Source: Alphaproteobacteria bacterium (GTDB lineage Bacteria; Pseudomonadota; Alphaproteobacteria; M2410). From it: a DNA stretch of 64,000 bases. The translations under genes were made by a program, and so were the position numbers. A model generated the notes under the pieces. The model had not been told where the DNA came from. It worked only from the letters and a program-made list of their open reading frames with translations, and did not search any database. This document shows, piece by piece, positions 39,490 through 49,854 of this stretch. The DNA lies in assembly GCA_965248915.1 (NCBI GenBank), contig OZ252216.1, forward strand, positions 1,507,001 through 1,571,000, in the 5' to 3' direction. The number at the start of each line of letters is the position of its first letter. Within the stretch, counting starts at the first letter, position 1.

Positions 39490-40926
39490 TTGAAATTTGC
39501 AGCAAAATTCGGTGGAATGGCTCAGGGTGTTGGGCAGTTGGATCAGAGACTACATGATCAAGGGAAGCGTCGAATGACCACAGGACCTGTGGCCAGAGTT
39601 AGATCATTACTTGCGCGTCTTTTTCCGGAAAGACAGTTCTATCATCGTAGCCACGGTGAAGTGCGCTTCATTTCGCTCTCTGCACGAAATCAAATTGGCC
39701 TTGTCGCGGTATCCCTCGCCTTTTTGGGCTGGGTCGCGTTCGCGTCGGTGAATGTGGTCTTTAAAGACCAAATCATCACGATCAAGGAACGCAAGCTCAA
39801 AGCCATGCGGGCGGAATACGAAGTTCAAATGTCTGACATGCAATCAGCCTATGATGAACTCAACTCTCTCTTGAGCCTTGCCCAGGAACGATTTGAGGAA
39901 ACCACCACAGAGCTCGAAGCCAAACATGGCCAACTAGAGTCCTTTGTCGTTCGACAAGCATCTATCCAAGGCAATTTTGACGAATTGCGTCAGCGTCTTC
40001 AGCAAAAAGCCATGAAAGGCGCCGATGAAAAGCCTGAGAGTTCAGTTCTCATGCAGGCAACCAATCTTGAGCCCGCCAAACGCGTCTCGCGCATGGGGCC
40101 TGTGGATGAAGACACCAACCTCACTTACATGAGCCAGGTTATGCGCGCCGTTTCCACTGGCCGCATCCAGCTCCACCGCAATACAGCGAAGGTGAGCGAC
40201 AAAGTCTCAAAGCTCGACAACCGTCTGGCTCTTCTCAATCGGTCTCGCAGCGAACAGCTGGCCGGCTTAGAAGAGCGCGCTACCAGAGCCATTGAACAAT
40301 ACGAAGCCATCATCCAACAAACCGGCCTCGACATCGACGAAGTGACCGAGAATTTCAAACCACAACACACCTCAATTGGCGGACCATTCATTTCGCTCGA
40401 GGATTATGATGGTGACTACTCGGAACTCGCGATCGATGAGTACCAACGCCAAATTCACCGGATCGACGAGAAGCTCGCCCGCTTGGACAGCTTAGGTTCA
40501 GCCCTTACGAGCATTCCCCTCGCCCTTCCCACAGACAGTAACTTGAGGCTTTCGAGCCGATTTGGCCCTCGGCGCGATCCATATACGCGCAGAGCGGCCT
40601 TCCACGCCGGCTTGGATGTCGCCGGCCCAAGACGTTCAGACATTCACGCGACAGCCGCCGGCAAAGTTGTCCATGCAGGTCGCCGTGGTCCTTACGGGTG
40701 GATGGTCGAGATCGACCACGGCCACGGATTTAAGACTCGTTACGGTCATCTTTACAAAATCAAAGTAAAGAAAGGCGATACTGTCGACTTCGGTCAGGTG
40801 GTTGGATTGCTGGGTTCCAGCGGGCGCTCCACGGGACCTCACGTTCACTACGAAATCTGGTTCGAAGGAAAAGTTCGCGATCCGGATAAGTTCATAAAGG
40901 CAGGTCGCCATGTTCTCAAAAGCTAA
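39490..40926 (+). CDS. M23-family (LytM) metallopeptidase with an N-terminal membrane anchor and coiled-coil region
   Basis: C-terminal M23 motifs HAGLDVAG ... VEIDHGHGFKTRYGHL ... GSSGRSTGPHVHYEI. Start uncertain; an internal ATG at 39574 is possible. Confidence 0.8.
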   Translation: MKFAAKFGGMAQGVGQLDQRLHDQGKRRMTTGPVARVRSLLARLFPERQFYHRSHGEVRFISLSARNQIGLVAVSLAFLGWVAFASVNVVFKDQIITIKERKLKAMRAEYEVQMSDMQSAYDELNSLLSLAQERFEETTTELEAKHGQLESFVVRQASIQGNFDELRQRLQQKAMKGADEKPESSVLMQATNLEPAKRVSRMGPVDEDTNLTYMSQVMRAVSTGRIQLHRNTAKVSDKVSKLDNRLALLNRSRSEQLAGLEERATRAIEQYEAIIQQTGLDIDEVTENFKPQHTSIGGPFISLEDYDGDYSELAIDEYQRQIHRIDEKLARLDSLGSALTSIPLALPTDSNLRLSSRFGPRRDPYTRRAAFHAGLDVAGPRRSDIHATAAGKVVHAGRRGPYGWMVEIDHGHGFKTRYGHLYKIKVKKGDTVDFGQVVGLLGSSGRSTGPHVHYEIWFEGKVRDPDKFIKAGRHVLKS

Positions 40927-41515
40927 AGACGCACCAGAAAAACCGAAAATGAAGACCCAATCTCAACCGCAACAAACGAGGCGTAACGTGAAATCCGCTC
41001 CTTCGATTATTAGCGCCGACATGACCGTGAACGGAACGCTCACGGCAACAGGCGACATTCAGGTCGACGGTACAGTAGAGGGCGATATCTCTAGCGCCTC
41101 ACTGACCATCGGTGAAAAAGCAACCGTACATGGCGAAGTCATATCGGAAGATGTTGTGATCCGAGGACGGGTCATTGGCAGCGTTCGCGCAAATCGCGTC
41201 CAGCTCTCCTCTTCCAGCCATGTCGAAGGCGACATTTATCATCAGGCCTTGGCCGTCGAAACGGGCGCCTTCTTTGAAGGCAACTGCCGTCACTCGGACA
41301 ATCCAATGGCTGAATCAGGTGGCGGCGGACGCGGATCCCGCAAAGTTGCTACCAATCCACTCGAGCAAGGCGGCAAGCCTGCGATGGCTCACGAGAGCGG
41401 CGCCAAAAGCCCGCCCCGACCGGCCCGCAATGGTGGCGGCGGCCGCGCTCCAGTCGAAGCTCAGTCAGCGTTGCAACGCTTGACCGGCTCAAGTGGACGC
41501 AAGGGCCAAGACTAA
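40910..41515 (+). CDS. Bactofilin (polymer-forming cytoskeletal protein)
   Basis: Bactofilin/DUF583 beta-helical repeats (VNGTLTATGDIQVDGTVEGDIS...VHGEV...IRGRVIGSVRAN...VEGDIYHQALAVETGAFFEGNC). The start overlaps the M23 gene by 17 nt. Confidence 0.85.
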   Translation: MFSKAKDAPEKPKMKTQSQPQQTRRNVKSAPSIISADMTVNGTLTATGDIQVDGTVEGDISSASLTIGEKATVHGEVISEDVVIRGRVIGSVRANRVQLSSSSHVEGDIYHQALAVETGAFFEGNCRHSDNPMAESGGGGRGSRKVATNPLEQGGKPAMAHESGAKSPPRPARNGGGGRAPVEAQSALQRLTGSSGRKGQD

Positions 41516-41540
41516 GAACACGACAATCTCAAGATTTAAC

Positions 41541-41575
41541 CCCCTTGGGCCTTGGCCCTAGGGGGTTTTTCTTTG
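41541..41575 (+). terminator. Rho-independent terminator after the first bactofilin gene
   Basis: GC-rich hairpin cccc-ttGGGCC-tt-GGCCCta-gggg followed by ttttt. Confidence 0.7.
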
Positions 41576-41633
41576 CTCAATCACAACAATTGATCCAGCG
41601 ACTTTTACTGAATCCTAGGATTAACAAGATAGC

Positions 41634-42203
41634 TTGGCGATGAAATTCATTCGATCATCAAAAGGCCTCGACATGTTGAAAAAGACCCCTGAAGCATCTG
41701 ATCTGCAAGCCAGAGCGCCAAAAGGCGTACCCCCACGTGAAGCCATTGTCAGTGCCGGCATGAAAATCACGGGCACAATTCACTCCGTCACCGATGTGCG
41801 CATCGAAGGGGAATTGGATGGTGACGTGCTTGCAGCGACGCTGACCGTTGCTGAAGGTGCAACCGTCAACGGTGAAGTGGTTGCTGAAACTGTCGTCGTT
41901 GAGGGCAGCGTTACCGGCACAGTCCGGACGAACAATGCCTACCTCGCAGCCACAGGTCATGTGAGCGGTGACGTCTACTTCCGTGATCTCACAGTTGATC
42001 AAGGCGCGAAGGTCAATGCCGTATGCGAATGCAAAGAGAACCCAATTTCTGATTTTGTAGCGGGTTCAGTGGCCGAAGGTAAACTTGGCAAATCTGACCG
42101 TTCTGTCGGTGATGTCGACGCCAACGACGAGACCGTTTCAAAAATTGAGAAGAATGAAGAATCAGTCGACAAAGGCAACGAAAAGAAAGTCGCGACCGCC
42201 TAA
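41634..42203 (+). CDS. Bactofilin paralog
   Basis: Same DUF583 repeat pattern (ITGTIHSVTDVRIEGELDGDV...VNGEVVAETVVVEGSVTGTVRTN...VSGDVYFRDLTVDQGAKVNAVCE). Start uncertain. Confidence 0.8.
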   Translation: MAMKFIRSSKGLDMLKKTPEASDLQARAPKGVPPREAIVSAGMKITGTIHSVTDVRIEGELDGDVLAATLTVAEGATVNGEVVAETVVVEGSVTGTVRTNNAYLAATGHVSGDVYFRDLTVDQGAKVNAVCECKENPISDFVAGSVAEGKLGKSDRSVGDVDANDETVSKIEKNEESVDKGNEKKVATA

Positions 42204-43169: not shown

Positions 43170-43257
43170 GCAGAAATCCTCAAATTGACCACAAGAGACA
43201 TTTGCGGCAGTTTGGCGCTAACAACAAGACAAATAGTCTGGATAAGGAAACGAACCC

Positions 43258-45135
43258 GTGGATAGCAAGAAGCCTTCAAGTCGACCTGGAGTAAGGGCGG
43301 CCATAGCCGCAGCCGCTCTCTTTCTATCAACTGCCGCTGTCGCAGAAGATGCCCCCCGCAACCTCTACTGGGGAGATACCCATCTTCATTCGAACTATTC
43401 ATTCGACGCCTACTTGTTTCAGAACTACACCGGCGATCCCGATCTAGCCTATCGGTTTGCCAAAGGTGTGCCGGTCCTCCATCCTAAACTCCAAACTCAA
43501 ATTCAGATCGAAACCCCGCTCGATTTCTTGGTGCTCGCGGACCACGCCGAGCTAACGGCAGTGCCCTTGCGGATCTTCGAGAAGGACGAACAACTCCTCA
43601 AGACAGCCTTCGGAAAGCGCGTCCGACCGCTGATTGAGGCCGATAAAGGCGGTGATGTATTCGCTGAGATCGTCCGTCTCGCAAATGCGGGAATGGACAA
43701 CAACTCCGAACTTACCGAGCTCCAATCCGACGACATTCGTCGGCCCGCCTGGGAAGACATTGTTGAAGTTGCTGACCGGCACAATGAACCTGGAAAGTTT
43801 ACAGCCTTCATTGGGTGGGAATGGTCATCACTCCCCGATGCGGCCAACCTCCACCGAGTGGTCTTCATGGACAAGGATGCTGAGACCGGCAAAAAATTCC
43901 TCCCCTACGGGTCGACCACCAGCGTCAAGCCTGAAGACTTGTGGGCCTGGCTTGAAGAAACAGAGGAACTGACCGGCGCCAATTTCGTCGCCATCCCTCA
44001 CAACATGAACATTTCCAAAGGGCGCATGTTTGAAACAATGGACAGCGATGGCCGCCCGATCACCGATGCCTACGCGCGCACACGCATGCGTTGGGAGCCA
44101 GTTGCCGAAGTCACCCAGTATAAGGGCGACTCTGAGACCCACCCTATCCTCTCCCCGGATGATGAATTCGCAAATTTTGAGACCTACCGTCATTTGATCG
44201 ACACCAGGCCTGACACCGATCACACCGCCTCCGTCACAAACGGCGACTATGCAAGAGGCGCCCTCAAGACTGGCCTGAAACTGGAAAGCGACATTGGCGT
44301 CAATCCATTCAAATTTGGAATGATTGGCGCAACGGATTCACACACCAGCCTTGCCTCGGCTGAAGAGACAAACTTCTTCTACAAGTTCCCGTTTATGGCG
44401 ACACCGACAGATAGGTCCGAGGGAACACCAGGCCGAGGGGATGGCCCGATCGGGTGGAACTTTGGCGCTCAAGGGTTGGCCGGCGTTTGGGCCGAAGAAA
44501 ACACACGCGAGTCCATTCTCACAGCCTTCAAACGAAAAGAAGTCTTCGCGACAACCGGCCCAAGGATCATGTTGAGATTTTTCGGTGGCTGGAATTTCAG
44601 GTCGCGAGATGCCCGCGCAAATGATGTCGGCCAAACAGGCTACGACAAGGGCGTTTCCATGGGCGCCGATCTGATGGCACCGGCGGGTGGCCTCTTCTCC
44701 GGTGACAAGACACCAAGCTTTCTCATTCAAGCGGTCAGCGATCCCAAGAGCGGCAACCTTGACCGCATACAAATCGTCAAAGGTTGGCTCGATGCAGAAG
44801 GTCAGACCCAAGAGAAAGTCTTCAATGTTGTGGCATCGGATGGTCGAACCATCGACTCCGACGGTAAGCTTGCCCCAGTCGGCAACACAGTTGATTTGGC
44901 CACAGCCACCTACACAAACACAATTGGCGACCCAGAACTTGTCGCCGTGTGGCGCGACCCAGAGTTTGATCCCACACAGCGCGCCTTCTACTATGTAAGA
45001 GTTCTGGAAATCCCCACCCCTCGGCACGCACTACTTGATGCCCTGAGCCTTCAAACAGATCTACCAGAGGGCGTCTCCGCCATACTCCAGGAACGAGCCT
45101 ACTCGTCCCCAATCTGGTACACCCCGCCGTCTTGA
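43258..45135 (+). CDS. Secreted DUF3604-domain protein
   Basis: Signal peptide, then NLYWGDTHLHSNYSFDAY, typical of the N-terminus of DUF3604 (PHP-like); 625 aa. Confidence 0.6.
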   Translation: MDSKKPSSRPGVRAAIAAAALFLSTAAVAEDAPRNLYWGDTHLHSNYSFDAYLFQNYTGDPDLAYRFAKGVPVLHPKLQTQIQIETPLDFLVLADHAELTAVPLRIFEKDEQLLKTAFGKRVRPLIEADKGGDVFAEIVRLANAGMDNNSELTELQSDDIRRPAWEDIVEVADRHNEPGKFTAFIGWEWSSLPDAANLHRVVFMDKDAETGKKFLPYGSTTSVKPEDLWAWLEETEELTGANFVAIPHNMNISKGRMFETMDSDGRPITDAYARTRMRWEPVAEVTQYKGDSETHPILSPDDEFANFETYRHLIDTRPDTDHTASVTNGDYARGALKTGLKLESDIGVNPFKFGMIGATDSHTSLASAEETNFFYKFPFMATPTDRSEGTPGRGDGPIGWNFGAQGLAGVWAEENTRESILTAFKRKEVFATTGPRIMLRFFGGWNFRSRDARANDVGQTGYDKGVSMGADLMAPAGGLFSGDKTPSFLIQAVSDPKSGNLDRIQIVKGWLDAEGQTQEKVFNVVASDGRTIDSDGKLAPVGNTVDLATATYTNTIGDPELVAVWRDPEFDPTQRAFYYVRVLEIPTPRHALLDALSLQTDLPEGVSAILQERAYSSPIWYTPPS

Positions 45136-45152
45136 CGATTACGCACTAAGGA

Positions 45153-46058
45153 TTGACAAATATGACATGGCTCAAGCGGATCATCACCGATCCGCTTACC
45201 CACTTTCTCATCATCGGTGTCGCAATTTTGCTCGTCGCAAGTTTGCTGGACCGCGAAGGGAACCAAAGCGATGCGGATCGACAAATCTCTGTGGATCGAG
45301 AAGCCCTCCTGACTTTTATGCAATATCGCGCCAACAGTTTTGATCCGGAAACCTCCGATACTTATCTGACCGAAATGAGCGAGGCAGATCGCAAGGAGCT
45401 CGTAAGTGACTACGTCAGAAACGAAGTGTTGCTGCGAGAAGCCGTCGCACTCGGTCTTGACCGAAGCGACGGGGTCATTCGAGGACGTCTACAACAGCGG
45501 ATGGAATTCGCCCTCAAAGGCCTGATCGCAGAAACTGGACCACAAAGCGATGAAGCGATCACCACGTATTTTCAAGAAAACATTGAAGCTTACCGGATCG
45601 CGCCGTCCATTACTTTCACGCATATCTTCTTTTCAACAAAGAGTGACGCCCCCTTTGAGGCTGAAGAGCGCGCAGCCAAAGCACTTGAAACAATGGATTC
45701 AACACCGAACGCCAATCCCAACCCTCTTGGCGACCGGTTCCAGTATTTCGGCAACTATGTCGAACGCACTCCCGAACTCGTTGCCAGTCATTTCGGAGAT
45801 GACTTCACAACAACTGTATTTGCAATCAACCCAGAACCAGGCCTTTGGCAGGGTCCCGTCCTATCTCCTTACGGACTTCATCTCGTCCAGGTCTCAGGCA
45901 AACGAGCGTCACGCCTGCCTCAATTCGAAGAGGTTCAGTCGCAGGTCACCGAAGATGCGACCCGTGCAAGCACTGACCAGCGTCTAGAGAAAGCCATTCG
46001 CGAACTAACAGCTGGATATCAAGTCACCGTCGACCTCTCAAAGACAGAGAGTGAGTGA
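45153..46058 (+). CDS. Membrane-anchored parvulin-like (PpiC-type) peptidyl-prolyl isomerase domain protein
   Basis: N-terminal TM (HFLIIGVAILLVASLL). C-terminal region ITFTHIFF...GDRFQYFG...GLWQGPVLSPYGLHLVQV resembles a degenerate parvulin domain. Confidence 0.45.
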   Translation: MTNMTWLKRIITDPLTHFLIIGVAILLVASLLDREGNQSDADRQISVDREALLTFMQYRANSFDPETSDTYLTEMSEADRKELVSDYVRNEVLLREAVALGLDRSDGVIRGRLQQRMEFALKGLIAETGPQSDEAITTYFQENIEAYRIAPSITFTHIFFSTKSDAPFEAEERAAKALETMDSTPNANPNPLGDRFQYFGNYVERTPELVASHFGDDFTTTVFAINPEPGLWQGPVLSPYGLHLVQVSGKRASRLPQFEEVQSQVTEDATRASTDQRLEKAIRELTAGYQVTVDLSKTESE

Positions 46059-47092
46059 TGATGGATTGGCGGGCCAAAGTCCTCACCTTTTCGTTGGTTT
46101 TGACGTTTTTGTGTATGTTTGACTGGGCCAGCCCGGCAGTCGCCCACGACAGTCGCCCCATCTCTTTGCGCATCACAGAAAAATCTGAGGCCCTCTTCTC
46201 AGTAACCTGGCAAGTGCCCGGCTCTGTCGCCAATGAGAACCAACCTTCACCCCGCCTGCCAACAATGTGTAACCCCTTGAGTCCGCCAAAACTGTCAACC
46301 CAGTCAGGCGCCCGGATTGGGGAACAGATCTATCATTGCCACAACAAGCTGTCGGGAGAGATCGTTGAGATCGATTTCCCCCTCTTCAATCCTTCCCTGA
46401 CGGCTGTAGTTCAGATTGATTGGATGTCGGGCGAAACGGTGAACGTGGTTCTCGCCCCAAATGAACTCACATGGAAGGTCCCGGAGAAATCAACACCAGC
46501 GAACGTCTCCAAACGCTACTTTACTCTGGGTATGATACACATCTTCGGTGGGTACGATCACCTGCTCTTCTTGCTGTGTCTTCTCCTGATCGCCAGAACA
46601 CCGAAGCGAACCATCGTCACAGTTACGGGATTTACCCTTGCCCACTCCTTCACATTGGCGCTCGCAGTGTTTCAGGTCATCAGACTGCCGATCGCAGCGG
46701 TCGAAACAGTCATTGCGCTGAGCATTGTCTTTCTTGCTGTAGAGATTGCGCGCGGCCGATCAAATACGCTGAGTTTTCGTTATCCAGTCATCGTGGCAAG
46801 CGCTTTCGGTCTTCTTCACGGATTGGGTTTCGCTTCCGTTCTCAGCGAAATTGGTCTGCCAAGCGGGCAAGTCCCCTTAGCCTTATTGTTGTTCAACCTG
46901 GGAATTGAAGCCGGGCAGCTCTTGATCCTCGCACCGACCTTCATCGGGATTGTCTGGTTCGCGAGGCACGAAATGACCAGGACACCTAGAATGCTGAGAT
47001 CGATAGCCGTCCAAAGGACCGCCATCTATGTTGTCGGCGGGCTCGCCTCGTTTTGGTTTCTCGAGAGGTTCTCTCAAGCGTTTTCGCTTTAG
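46055..47092 (+). CDS. HupE/UreJ_2-like membrane protein with an N-terminal periplasmic domain
   Basis: Signal peptide and a ~150-aa soluble domain, then a 6-TM region with [13 protein letters not shown] and [10 protein letters not shown] motifs as in HupE/UreJ Ni/Co-type transporters. Overlaps the previous gene by 4 nt. Confidence 0.5.
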
Positions 47093-48218
47093 TCGAGGTC
47101 TTCTACGTCGCTGCTGGTTCCATGGACGCGCGCCGCCAAAGACGCCGCCATAAAGGGGTCGAGATCGCCATTAAGGACATTTTGCGGCGCCGTGCTTTCT
47201 ACGCCTGTGCGCAGATCCTTGACCATTTGGTAGGGCTGCAGAACATATGATCGAATTTGATGTCCCCACCCGATGTCGGTTTTGGCATCAGCATCCGCTT
47301 GCGCCACCTCTTCCCGTTTCTGAAGTTCGGCTTCATAAAGCCGGGCTCGTAACATCGTCCAAGCCGTCGCCCGGTTCTTGTGTTGTGATCGCTCGTTTTG
47401 GCACTGAACCACGATACCAGAGGAGATGTGGGTAATGCGCACCGCACTATCGGTGGTGTTGACATGTTGCCCCCCTGCCCCGCTGGCGCGGTAGGTATCA
47501 ATGCGAACGTCTTTTTCGCTGACATCTATATCAATCTCGTCGTCGACTTCCGGGAACACCCAGACAGAGGCAAAACTAGTGTGGCGCCGGGCGTTGGAAT
47601 CAAACGGGGAGATCCGTACCAATCGATGTACACCGGACTCCGTCTTGAGCCAGCCATAAGAATTGTGGCCTTTGATATGAAGGGTGGCCGACTTAAGTCC
47701 CGCTTCTTCGCCCGGGCTTTCTTCAATCACTTCGACCTTGTGACCATGGGCCTGGGCCCAGCGCGCATACATGCGGACCAACATACTGGCCCAATCTTGG
47801 CTCTCAGTGCCACCTGCTCCCGCATGAACTTCAAGGAAGGTGTCGTTCGCATCCGCTTCGCCGGAGAGTAATGTTTCAAGCTCTTGTTTTTGCGCCACCT
47901 TATGTAGTTCTTTGAGACTTGCTTCAGCTTCCGCCACAACTTCACTTTCGCCTTCAGCCTCTCCCATTTCAATAAGATCGATTGAATCTGACAGGCCCTG
48001 TTCAAGCTCTTTGTAGCCCGACATTTGGCTGTCCAAGTGGGTTCGTTCGCGCATAACTTTTTGCGCGGCCTCCGGCTTATCCCACAAGGTTGGGTCTTCG
48101 ACTTTCGCGTTCAGCTCATCGAGGCGTTTTTGGGCTGTATCCCAGTCAAAGATGCCTCCTCAGCAGTTCCAGTGACTGCTTGATGTCATTGATGAGTGCT
48201 TGTGTTTCTGCGCGCATG
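47089..48218 (-). CDS. prfB: Peptide chain release factor 2, requiring a +1 programmed frameshift
   Basis: Frame 0 reads [23 protein letters not shown] then UGA within CTT TGA C (minus strand of 48145..48151), preceded by an AGGAGG-like motif. The +1 frame continues [14 protein letters not shown]... to the GGQ-containing body ([18 protein letters not shown]) called at 47089..48087. Confidence 0.9.
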
Positions 48219-48457: not shown

Positions 48458-48733
48458 ATGAAACGACTGACAACCCCGGCAATCATCAGCGTCCTATCTC
48501 TCGCTCTATCGCCTGCCGCCCTGGCATCCGGTTATGAATGCGAGTCTGGGCCAAAAGACCAATGGATTGAGGAAGAAGCAGTGAAAGTCATGCTCACAGA
48601 GCAAGGCTATGAGATCCGCAAAATCGAAGTGGAAGACGGATGTTACGAAGCCTATGTGAAAAAGGAAGGCAAACGATTCGAGGTGTTCGTAAACCCGAGT
48701 ACTGGCGAAATTGAGAAAGTCCAGGAAGACTAA
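48458..48733 (+). CDS. Secreted PepSY-domain protein
   Basis: Signal peptide plus a single PepSY-like fold (VKVMLTEQGYEIRKIEVEDGCYEAYVKKEGKRFEVFVNPSTGEI). Confidence 0.65.
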   Translation: MKRLTTPAIISVLSLALSPAALASGYECESGPKDQWIEEEAVKVMLTEQGYEIRKIEVEDGCYEAYVKKEGKRFEVFVNPSTGEIEKVQED

Positions 48734-48737
48734 GCCA

Positions 48738-49274
48738 ATGACAAAAGAGATCGGCCCTACCAAGGTCAAAGTCTGGGATCCCATCGTGCGAATCTTCCAT
48801 TGGGTGACCGTTTCGATCGTGTTTATCGACTACTTCGTTTTCGATGAAGGCGATCTACACGAGGCCCTTGGATTCACCCTCATCGGTCTCCTGACGCTAC
48901 GGTTTCTATGGGGTTTTGTAGGGACAAAAAACGCCAGATTCTCGTGCTTTTGGCCAACACATTCGAGGCTGAGGTCCCACTGGGCCGATCTCAAACATCG
49001 CCGTGAAGGTCATGCGATTGGCCATAATCCGATTGGCGCGGTCATGATCTTCAATTTGCTGTTTGCTCTATCCATCACCTGCCTGACCGGATACCTGGGA
49101 ATAACCGATCGGTTTTGGGGTGTTGAGTGGGTCGAAGAGACCCATGAAGCCGCCGCCGGCTATCTTATGCTCAGCGTGACGATACATGTGATTGGCGTCC
49201 TATTTGAGTCCTGGCGTACCAATACGAATTTGATCTTAGCCATGTTCACAGGCATAAAGCGGGTGAAACGATAA
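48738..49274 (+). CDS. Cytochrome b561 / Ni-Fe hydrogenase b-type cytochrome family membrane protein
   Basis: VWDPIVRIFHW N-terminal His motif, four TM helices, a second His in HNPIGAVMIF. Start chosen at the ATG at 48738, just after the PepSY stop. Confidence 0.65.
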   Translation: MTKEIGPTKVKVWDPIVRIFHWVTVSIVFIDYFVFDEGDLHEALGFTLIGLLTLRFLWGFVGTKNARFSCFWPTHSRLRSHWADLKHRREGHAIGHNPIGAVMIFNLLFALSITCLTGYLGITDRFWGVEWVEETHEAAAGYLMLSVTIHVIGVLFESWRTNTNLILAMFTGIKRVKR

Positions 49275-49284
49275 CGTGAAATAG

Positions 49285-49854
49285 ATGTCTGTCGCCCAAA
49301 TTCTAAATCACCTGCACTCGACTCTTACCCATCCTCGGCAAATCGCCGTGATTTGGGTGGGCATCGTTGTTTCTCTTAGCTGCTCGATCTTTTTCTCCCT
49401 CGACGTCATCGGAGACCTTTTGGATCGGGACGACTTCCCTGGTGGCCGCGCTCACGAATTGATCGAGCTACTTGTCGTCGCCATCTCCGTCATGGCCTTA
49501 TTCTTTCTCCTGACCCAACTACGGCGGCTGTTGAAGCGCCACAGGCGGATCAGCAATCAGATGCGCGTGGCGGCAGGCGAATTTTCCGAGGTTGCCGATG
49601 CGCTGTTCGAACAATGGCAACTCTCACCTGCCGAACGGGATGTCGCTTTGTTTCTCATGAAAGGATTGAGCTTCAAAGAGATTGCCACATATCGAAATTC
49701 CAAGGAGGGAACGGTAAAAGCACAAGCCAATGCGGTTTATCGAAAGGCTGATGTGAACGGACGTCACCAGCTTTTGGCTGTCTTTTTTGACGAATTGATC
49801 GCCGATCCGCCATCAATGAACCGCACCTCTGAACCGAACAACGGCCAAGCCTAG
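49285..49854 (+). CDS. Membrane-anchored LuxR-family HTH transcriptional regulator
   Basis: Two N-terminal TM segments, then a GerE/LuxR HTH (ERDVALFLMKGLSFKEIATYRNSKEGTVKAQANAVYRK). Confidence 0.7.
   Translation: MSVAQILNHLHSTLTHPRQIAVIWVGIVVSLSCSIFFSLDVIGDLLDRDDFPGGRAHELIELLVVAISVMALFFLLTQLRRLLKRHRRISNQMRVAAGEFSEVADALFEQWQLSPAERDVALFLMKGLSFKEIATYRNSKEGTVKAQANAVYRKADVNGRHQLLAVFFDELIADPPSMNRTSEPNNGQA

Follow-up and report, generated by a model that had tools for sequence, protein, structure and literature searches.

The 64-kb window analysed here (64,000 nucleotides, positions 1,507,001 to 1,571,000 of contig OZ252216.1 in the alphaproteobacterial assembly GCA_965248915.1) contains a compact trio of plus-strand genes that encode a DUF3604 family protein (protein 1), a membrane-anchored foldase of the parvulin type (protein 2) and a HupE/UreJ-2 membrane protein with an additional periplasmic β-sandwich (protein 3, the product of the channel gene). 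We consider it quite likely that a functional link exists among these genes and that protein 1 is a PHP-type metalloenzyme of the periplasm. The chances are about even that the three genes form a single conserved cassette, in which an exported enzyme is accompanied by a two-protein maturation module that folds and metallates it. The analysis established the family memberships, the predicted folds, the conservation of the ligands, the export signals and the linkage of the genes.

All components of the trio belong to known superfamilies; what is new is the widespread trio as such, the apparent identity of DUF3604 as a PHP family with an intact trinuclear site, and the near-obligate coupling of the foldase to a HupE/UreJ-2 protein with a mature N-terminal histidine (His1). 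An earlier note on this DNA knew of no characterised function for the combination, and our literature searches likewise yielded no paper that describes it.

Conservation of the trio

The linkage of the genes was surveyed around DUF3604 genes in a genome collection (the best 80 of 586 loci) and around protein 3 genes in a metagenome collection (80 loci). In the latter set, 49 of the 50 loci with enough sequence have the foldase gene as the immediate upstream neighbour of the channel gene, and a DUF3604 gene is found near this pair in 38 of the 45 informative loci. The full trio is present in 22 of the 80 DUF3604-anchored loci, from Alpha- and Gammaproteobacteria, 'Delta'/Myxococcota and a Nitrospirales metagenome-assembled genome (MAG), and the cultured carriers are Aurantiacibacter sp. 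MUD11 and Microbulbifer sp. JMSA003. These frequencies are far beyond chance and bear out the synteny in other genomes on which the earlier note had made its reading depend.

The association is kept through rearrangements of the gene order, which is foldase–channel–DUF3604–DUF3604 in locus L009, DUF3604–channel–foldase in L023 and channel–foldase–DUF3604 in L075; in L163 the DUF3604 gene is convergent to the pair. One 7.6-Mb genome has kept the trio although its foldase is only 26% identical and its DUF3604 gene is convergent. Foldase orthologues from different loci match each other with E values of 1e-25 to 1e-68. In a mirror-tree comparison over 45 loci, the pairwise distances of the three proteins correlate (r = 0.55, 0.45 and 0.62, reached by none of 2000 permutations); the three proteins co-diversify.

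The foldase and channel families are the sole broadly recurring neighbours of DUF3604, the other neighbours being lineage-specific (acyl-CoA/lipid-type catabolic genes, TonB-dependent receptors and AraC regulators). There were no hydrogenase, urease or B12/cobalt genes among the immediate neighbours in the window, the annotated recurring neighbour clusters or the three loci with called genes. DUF3604 itself is a large family, with at least 7991 significant matches among the 8000 candidates scored, and is often present in multiple copies in marine Gammaproteobacteria. In a neighbour-joining tree, pair-adjacent DUF3604 proteins lie on the deepest branches and 'lone' copies mainly in derived Halieaceae-type clades; one contig carries both a trio with tandem DUF3604 genes and a separate lone copy (L029, L041). 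Judging from these sequence comparisons, the foldase–channel pair is near-obligate and usually sits beside DUF3604, and the DUF3604 family appears to have expanded beyond the pair.

Several variations on this arrangement were seen. Tandem DUF3604 genes encoding diverged paralogues occur in loci L003, L007, L009, L029, L030, L055, L083, L090, L098, L136 and L159, usually directly upstream of a single foldase–channel pair, an arrangement suggesting that the enzyme is hetero-oligomeric or that one maturation module serves two clients. Genes inserted between DUF3604 and the pair encode two tandem DUF1254/DUF1214 proteins in L119 (1933–4831) and a TonB-dependent receptor in L097 (2429–4816); in some lineages, these proteins may belong to the pathway as well. 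Lone DUF3604 genes (L037, L054, L070, L073, L077 and other Halieaceae-type loci) share a conserved block with genes for acyl-CoA synthetase, acyl-CoA dehydrogenase, family-III CoA-transferase and enoyl-CoA hydratase, and others adjoin genes for Baeyer–Villiger monooxygenase-like and GST-like proteins. Such surroundings could reflect a lipid-like or hydrophobic phosphoester substrate or, equally, the shared ancestry of closely related genomes. The seven pair loci without DUF3604 have miscellaneous same-strand neighbours (SDR, GGDEF-EAL, ketoacyl synthase, nitroreductase and aminotransferase genes), and an alternative recurrent partner was rejected on this ground.

The three proteins and their genes

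The family assignments of the earlier note stand: the Pfam matches are to DUF3604 for protein 1 (PF12228, E = 3e-226), Rotamase_2 for protein 2 (PF13145, E = 4.7e-11) and HupE_UreJ_2 for protein 3 (PF13795, E = 2.3e-43), and protein 1 does contain the motif LYWGDTHLHSNYS that it quoted, as protein 3 does GYDHLL and HGLGF. NCBIfam yielded no useful match for the three proteins. It was also right in directing all three proteins to the envelope, with a signal peptide in protein 1, a transmembrane anchor in protein 2 and a signal peptide plus membrane domain in protein 3, and in regarding protein 2 as a folding helper.

The DUF3604 match of protein 1 (752.9 bits, cut-off 20.4) aligns residues 32–623 with positions 2–591 of the 591 positions in the profile. 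The predicted fold is a distorted (β/α)7 barrel like that of the PHP superfamily, with helical insertions at approximately residues 100–175 and 260–350. Nine candidate metal ligands (H42, H44, D50, H96, E188, H199, H248, D360 and H362), each at the C-terminal end of a predicted strand, agree with the PHP pattern of nine His/Asp/Glu ligands for three metals (HxH, D/H, H, E, H, H, DxH). All nine are invariant in a 52-sequence alignment (A4). In a larger set of 110 DUF3604 sequences, drawn from 160 loci with the H42-x-H44 motif as the selection criterion, D50, H96, E188, H199, D360 and H362 are invariant in all 110 and H248 in 109; DUF3604 copies encoded far from the foldase–channel pair keep the ligands as well. 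We take these residues to be equivalent, ligand by ligand, to those of solved PHP enzymes, going by their position and by the histidinol phosphatase site rather than by a superposition. The figures listed for protein 1 are ~8.6 for the PHP domains of Pol III alpha and ~7 for histidinol phosphatases. The Pfam PHP model PF02811 gave no match to protein 1, DUF3604 alone being reported at E ≤ 0.1, and sequence and profile searches of the PDB with protein 1 found no relatives; the kinship of DUF3604 with PHP proteins is visible through fold and motifs only. Protein 1 is thus predicted from its modelled fold to be an exported PHP-superfamily enzyme with a complete nine-residue trinuclear metal site, which most likely hydrolyses a phosphoester bond.

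With regard to export, an RR-like motif is found in just two of 120 DUF3604 homologue N-termini, and the median cysteine count of the family is zero. Export of a pre-metallated enzyme by the twin-arginine translocation (Tat) pathway was ruled out by this near-absence of RR-like motifs. An exported PHP phosphoesterase has a precedent in Sb-PDE of Sphingobium, a Sec-secreted PHP phosphodiesterase with 2.1 Zn per subunit (PMC5460133). In our literature search, 'DUF3604' appeared in one unrelated paper only, labelling a gene in a Chlamydia transposon table, and 'PF12228' in none.

Protein 2 has a short basic cytoplasmic N-terminus and one transmembrane helix (approximately residues 12–29), and the bulk of the protein is periplasmic. 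It scores 44 bits against the Rotamase_2 cut-off of 27, and 17 bits with PF00639, under the cut-off of 21.7. A profile of 28 homologues (A5) aligns with PEB4 (3rfw) over ~230 residues (E = 7.4e-14, profile positions 59–289 to residues 20–250) and with HP0175 (E = 1.6e-9), and the parvulin domain also aligns with SurA and PrsA; in these profile alignments, the chaperone helices and the parvulin domain are arranged as in PEB4/HP0175, both of them, like SurA and PrsA, chaperone peptidyl-prolyl isomerases. Invariant residues are F15, E88, R92, G98, D103, R109, W229, P232, G238 and H240, the last being the second parvulin histidine (GLHLV). Protein 2 therefore appears to be a foldase/chaperone of the PEB4/PrsA type. 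At the cytoplasmic edge of its transmembrane helix (45195–45248), the motif (E/D)PLxHF is conserved throughout the family (residues 11–15, P11 and H14 in at least 90% of sequences, F15 invariant). Such conservation is unexpected for a passive anchor and hints at a specific intramembrane partner, perhaps through a contact with the channel protein.

Protein 3 matches HupE_UreJ_2 at residues 155–304 (148 bits, cut-off 24.5) and, more weakly but above threshold, HupE_UreJ (PF04955, E = 7.6e-11, 42.3 bits, cut-off 23). The AlphaFold2 (AF2) model has a predicted local distance difference test (pLDDT) score of 89.8 and consists of a helix (4–23), a β-sandwich (35–140) and a series of helices (147–343). 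The A29–H30 junction is invariant in 50 of 50 homologues, with the consensus AxA↓H(D/E)SRP at the predicted cleavage site, and mature protein 3 is therefore predicted to start with a histidine. The N-domain has an invariant cysteine pair (C71 and C94) and a near-invariant Glu41. In the membrane domain, the HX5DH motif (H161...D167-H168) is invariant, as are H196, E229, H254, N280, E284 and Q287; we take HX5DH in the first transmembrane helix to be the HupE motif, following the work on R. leguminosarum HupE. The first ~150 residues matched no Pfam family. When the N-domain alone was compared with 1.84 billion representatives, there were 219 matches, all directly behind a signal peptide and mostly in proteins of ~320–345 amino acids; sequence and profile searches of the PDB with protein 3 and with the isolated N-domain found no relatives. 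In structure comparisons, the nearest folds are those of metal-binding proteins, ZrgA/PA4063 and, more weakly, Ang-1. The literature search found 'PF13795' in no paper.

A group of longer protein 3 relatives, of ~610–760 amino acids (P0377, P0382 and ~15 other representatives), has the mature N-terminus DDVRPV, with Asp in place of His1, a weak or absent HupE_UreJ_2 match and a ~400-residue C-terminal extension with a further transmembrane segment, for which a Pfam scan gave no match. At least two of these long open reading frames (ORFs; L075, 3507–5939, and L159, 2607–4766) still adjoin foldase and DUF3604 genes. The possibility that the long (~700-residue) relatives are Rosetta-stone fusions with the foldase or DUF3604 was rejected, as the extension has no Pfam match and the N-terminus is Asp.

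The trio is as tightly packed as the earlier note had it (Table 1). In the ORF list the first two genes are spaced by 17 nucleotides and the last two overlap by four; the database versions of protein 2 (P0241) and protein 3 (P0121) are shorter, and their ATG starts give a gap of 26 nucleotides and an overlap of one. The ATG of gene 2 follows an AAGGA Shine–Dalgarno sequence (45148–45152) by 9 nucleotides, that of gene 3 shares the sequence TGATG with the gene 2 stop codon, and the GTG start of gene 1 is preceded by AAGGAA (43244–43249) at a distance of 8 nucleotides. With either set of starts, the sequence has the appearance of one compact transcription unit, with genes 2 and 3 laid out for translational coupling. 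The operon promoter presumably lies in the intergenic region upstream of gene 1, where a simple sigma-70 scan gave no match and Zur-, Fur-, NikR- or PhoB-like boxes, sought with consensus sequences, were not found; a scan of the trio revealed no convincing terminator-like site between the genes. The same consensus sequences, a weak test, gave no signal upstream of 41 trio loci, the best matches having 3–9 mismatches. An Rfam scan of the entire window matched no riboswitch or other RNA family.

Table 1. Positions of the trio genes and their parts in the window
Feature	Position	Strand	Details
Divergent intergenic region, 88 nucleotides	43170..43257	.	AAGGAA Shine–Dalgarno sequence, from direct sequence reading
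Gene 1, DUF3604 protein, 625 amino acids, predicted Sec-exported periplasmic PHP-superfamily enzyme with trinuclear metal site	43258..45135	+	GTG start in ORF list
Gene 1, predicted Sec-type signal peptide, residues 1–29, ...STAAVA↓EDAP, no twin-arginine motif	43258..43344	+	Translation; low pLDDT
Gene 1, predicted PHP-like (β/α)7 catalytic barrel, residues ~33–470	43354..44667	+	
Gene 1, predicted C-terminal β-sandwich (FnIII/Ig-like), residues ~485–625, with invariant IPTPRH and QERAYSSPIWYTP motifs	44710..45135	+	
Gene 2, putative membrane-anchored parvulin-type foldase, 298 amino acids from ATG 45162	45162..46058	+	Longest ORF 45153–46058, 301 amino acids, TTG start
Gene 2, parvulin (Rotamase_2) domain	45546..45938	+	Pfam match, residues 132–262 of the 301-residue ORF
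Gene 3, His-1 β-sandwich plus HupE/UreJ-2 membrane domain, 344 amino acids from ATG 46058	46058..47092	+	Longest ORF 46055–47092, 345 amino acids, GTG start
Gene 3, predicted signal peptide, residues 1–29, ...ASPAVA↓HDSRP	46058..46144	+	Homologue alignment; helix 4–23 in the model
Gene 3, predicted periplasmic N-domain, residues 30 to ~146, β-sandwich opening with mature His-1 (codon 46145–46147)	46145..46495	+	
Gene 3, HupE/UreJ-2 helical membrane domain, residues ~147–344	46496..47092	+	

The trio is preceded by a divergent gene of the EamA family (minus strand, start 43169) and followed by a convergent prfB gene that abuts the stop codon of gene 3; the wider surroundings are housekeeping genes (Bcp, DUF455, M23 peptidase, two bactofilins and PBP1A). 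The prfB gene, encoding release factor 2 on the minus strand, has the classic programmed +1 frameshift site (48090–48216; ATG at 48216, then ...AGGAGG CAT CTT TGA C...), because of which the ORF list shows only its second part (47089–48087); this known feature confirms that the gene, as read from the sequence, is intact. At 39490–42203, a gene for an M23 peptidase whose N-terminal region is DUF5930 precedes two bactofilin genes, and the nearer of these overlaps the end of the peptidase gene. Such a module for cell shape and peptidoglycan remodelling is known in stalked or budding Alphaproteobacteria and is consistent with an alphaproteobacterial origin. A compact cluster at 48458–49854 comprises genes for a PepSY_2 protein (91 amino acids), for a membrane protein of the cytochrome b561 family (overlapping the PepSY gene with its start) and for a membrane-associated regulator of the LuxR/GerE type; the cluster did not recur in other loci and is therefore unrelated to the trio by synteny. 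The window proteins that were looked up by exact sequence are each singletons at 90% identity. The best non-self match of the window DUF3604 protein is 69% identical, and its closest DUF3604 relatives come from Alphaproteobacteria MAGs. The lineage appears to have no close sequenced relative in the collection searched.

Proposed function and competing explanations

If the trio is a maturation cassette, the DUF3604 enzyme would cross the membrane unfolded, through Sec, and acquire its three metal ions in the periplasm. An enzyme exported unfolded must take up these ions outside the cytoplasm, and any link with protein 3 would therefore have to go via the periplasmic face of protein 3 or through an outward flow of metal. 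The membrane-tethered foldase would hold and fold the nascent enzyme at the membrane surface, and the His-1 domain would catch a divalent metal and pass it to the nascent active site. This metal could come from the periplasm or through the HupE/UreJ-2 channel, and the channel could let metal out of the cytoplasm, let surplus metal in or serve as a mere anchor for the N-domain. One foldase–channel pair could serve several DUF3604 paralogues in trans. Zinc is our best guess for the metal, because YcdX and Sb-PDE carry zinc and the closest N-domain folds are those of zinc-trafficking proteins; Ni, Co, Cu, Mn and Fe are also candidates. The cytoplasmic PHP enzyme YcdX, whose zinc-dependent maturation requires the chaperone YcdY (PMC4464133), offers a possible analogy for the maturation of DUF3604 proteins. 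The substrate class, the identity of the metal, the direction of its flow and the contacts among the three proteins are inferred.

A more specific version of this scheme, which we put forward tentatively and regard as possible rather than probable, is that the foldase and the His1-sandwich/HupE-UreJ-2 protein constitute a membrane-bound 'periplasmic metal insertase' for Sec-exported DUF3604 proteins. Metal would pass through, or be caught at, the channel and be held by the N-terminal histidine, and the trinuclear site would be loaded while the foldase keeps the DUF3604 protein open. If true, a hydrolase family would have a metallation machine of its own outside the cytoplasm, and the 'anglerase' architecture, with His1 on a periplasmic sandwich fused to HupE/UreJ-2, would have a role other than uptake.

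A number of observations weigh against a maturation cassette. The pair is not nearby in 58 of the 80 DUF3604-anchored loci, and DUF3604 is not found within 2 kb in seven of the 45 informative pair loci (all seven having at least 2 kb on each side). The first parvulin histidine (THIFF) is His in the window protein and its close homologues and Gln in distant ones; because of this variation, the isomerase activity of protein 2 is uncertain. ZrgA, PA4063 and Ang-1 resemble the N-domain in structure only, at 8–16% identity, and this likeness comes from a predicted model. Characterised HupE/UreJ proteins import metal for cytoplasmic Ni/Co enzymes (PMC2667541), the sole study of His1-domain/HupE-UreJ-2 fusions proposes uptake, not enzyme metallation (PMC12537917), and our literature search found no experiment on any member of the trio.

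Metal uptake is a competing explanation that we find rather unlikely. Protein 3 would then capture a periplasmic transition metal and import it into the cytoplasm, with the foldase assisting protein 3 or envelope proteins, and DUF3604 would be co-regulated or would free the metal upstream by hydrolysing an organic (e.g. phosphoester-containing) metal complex. Canonical HupE/UreJ proteins are indeed Ni/Co importers, the fusions with a His1 domain have been proposed as uptake devices (PMC12537917), ZrgA and PA4063 are parts of zinc-import systems, a TonB-dependent receptor sits between DUF3604 and the pair in L097, and the pair stands without an adjacent DUF3604 gene in seven informative loci. 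However, uptake accounts neither for the coupling of the channel gene with a membrane-anchored foldase in nearly every locus nor for the nature of the usual third partner, a large exported enzyme that has a three-metal site of its own. The upstream regions of the 41 trio loci offered no Zur/Fur/NikR-like operator (the same weak test), adjacent regulators, where present, are AraC-type catabolic ones, many DUF3604 paralogues are found among lipid/acyl-CoA catabolic genes and not metal genes, and the neighbourhoods examined contain no genes for cytoplasmic Ni/Co/Zn clients. The earlier note had described protein 3 as a HupE/UreJ-like transporter for Ni/Co uptake and a dedicated importer for the enzyme. 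This part of it does not hold in that form: protein 3 belongs to the separate HupE_UreJ_2 family and has an extra periplasmic His-1 β-sandwich, hydrogenase, urease and B12 genes are missing from the neighbourhoods examined, and a Sec-exported, unfolded enzyme (118 of 120 homologues having no RR-like motif) would not be metallated by cytoplasmic import alone.

It is improbable, in our view, that the trio has nothing to do with metal handling, its membrane domain carrying the product or substrate of DUF3604, or anchoring or signalling, its His-1 sandwich binding that ligand or the enzyme, and its foldase being a plain secretion chaperone of the enzyme, like Lif for lipase or PrsA. Transport by a HupE_UreJ_2 protein has never been demonstrated (the literature searches gave the 2025 domain study alone), the membrane domain of protein 3 resembles generic secondary-transporter bundles, and the long relatives with Asp for His1 and degenerate HupE motifs still stand beside foldase and DUF3604 genes (L075, L159). 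On the other hand, His1, HX5DH and further membrane His/Asp/Glu residues are invariant in the ~340-residue family, as is typical of metal sites, and the nearest N-domain folds all belong to metal-binding proteins. Still less credible, to the point of being negligible, is the absence of any functional link, the genes being neighbours by chance or in this lineage only. In the window, the trio has EamA, bactofilin and M23 peptidase genes to one side and prfB and PBP1A to the other, all of them housekeeping genes without relation to it, but the co-occurrence was counted in independently sampled loci, and the trio is kept across phyla and through permutations of the gene order, with co-diversification of its proteins. 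The synteny counts exclude chance adjacency.

The supply of the right metal to enzymes that acquire their fold beyond the cytoplasm is a largely unresolved problem, for which the cassette would provide a concrete and genetically tractable test system with cultured carriers. The maturation scheme also suggests a first hypothesis for DUF3604, a family without a characterised member, namely that it consists of PHP-type periplasmic phosphoesterases that need accessory factors; such a need, if real, would explain failed heterologous expression and guide co-expression. At least one large HupE/UreJ-2 subfamily of the 'anglerase' architecture would be linked with one particular client enzyme and not with metal uptake in general.

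Comparison with known systems

Protein 1 shares the strand-end HxH, D, H, E, H, H, DxH ligands with the PHP phosphoesterases and related proteins (YcdX, L-histidinol phosphate phosphatase, RNase AM/TrpH, EndoQ, the PHP domains of Pol III and PolX, Sb-PDE, 3e38 and 2anu). It resembles the structural-genomics protein 3e38 in its combination of a barrel with a C-terminal β-sandwich and Sb-PDE in being Sec-secreted, but differs from the known enzymes in its much larger size (625 amino acids), its long helical insertions and the lack of a PF02811 match. We found no PHP enzyme described as having genes for a foldase and a metal-handling membrane protein coupled to its own; the nearest case is YcdX/YcdY.

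The closest parallel to protein 3 is the 'anglerase' architecture (Ang-1/Ang-2; PDB 9GCE), in which His1 on a periplasmic sandwich is fused to HupE/UreJ-2 (Nat Commun 2025, PMC12537917). Ang-1 binds Cu and Ni through His1, in a mono-histidine brace, and its authors propose metal fishing that feeds the permease (PMC12537917). Protein 3 has the same succession of signal peptide, mature N-terminal His, periplasmic β-sandwich and HupE_UreJ_2 membrane domain, but its N-domain, of ~115 amino acids, has no sequence similarity to 9GCE, is without the helical insert described for Ang-1 and has a fold nearer to those of ZrgA and PA4063. The neighbourhoods differ too: those of Ang-1 contain unknowns, DUF4198, IndA-like and PfkB genes, with Rotamase_2 three times and DUF3604 never in the source data (PMC12537917), whereas a foldase gene accompanies protein 3 in all but one of the informative loci.

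ZrgA and PA4063 are zinc-binding proteins (PMC9820375, PMC8561739) of Zur-regulated ABC importers. With these, the N-domain has in common a β-sandwich, a disulfide-capable Cys pair and metal ligands from the N-terminal segment; it differs in its low identity (15–16%), in its fusion to a HupE/UreJ-2 channel and in that no Zur-like box was found. Neither the sequence nor the alignment of the N-domain has a His-rich loop, unlike ZrgA, and no ABC transporter genes of the zrgBCDE type stand beside the pair in the neighbourhoods examined. With canonical HupE/UreJ proteins (PF04955), protein 3 shares an above-threshold match, a histidine at the mature N-terminus and, in the first helix of the domain, a motif of the HX5DH type, but it matches PF13795 better, has a domain of ~115 amino acids between His1 and the membrane part, and is partnered by the foldase and DUF3604 instead of the hydrogenase, urease or B12/cobalt genes of the canonical members, whose presence is what Ni or Co specificity is assigned on.

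Protein 2 resembles PrsA, PEB4/HP0175 and SurA in combining a parvulin domain with a helical chaperone region on its flanks. It is membrane-tethered like PrsA, PpiD and Lif and is encoded beside a secreted enzyme. Unlike all of these, it forms a specific orthologous family that is nearly always paired with a His1-HupE/UreJ-2 gene and has a variable first catalytic His. The placement of metalloenzyme genes beside a metal permease and a chaperone is nevertheless a known theme, represented by the urease, hydrogenase and lipase–foldase systems.

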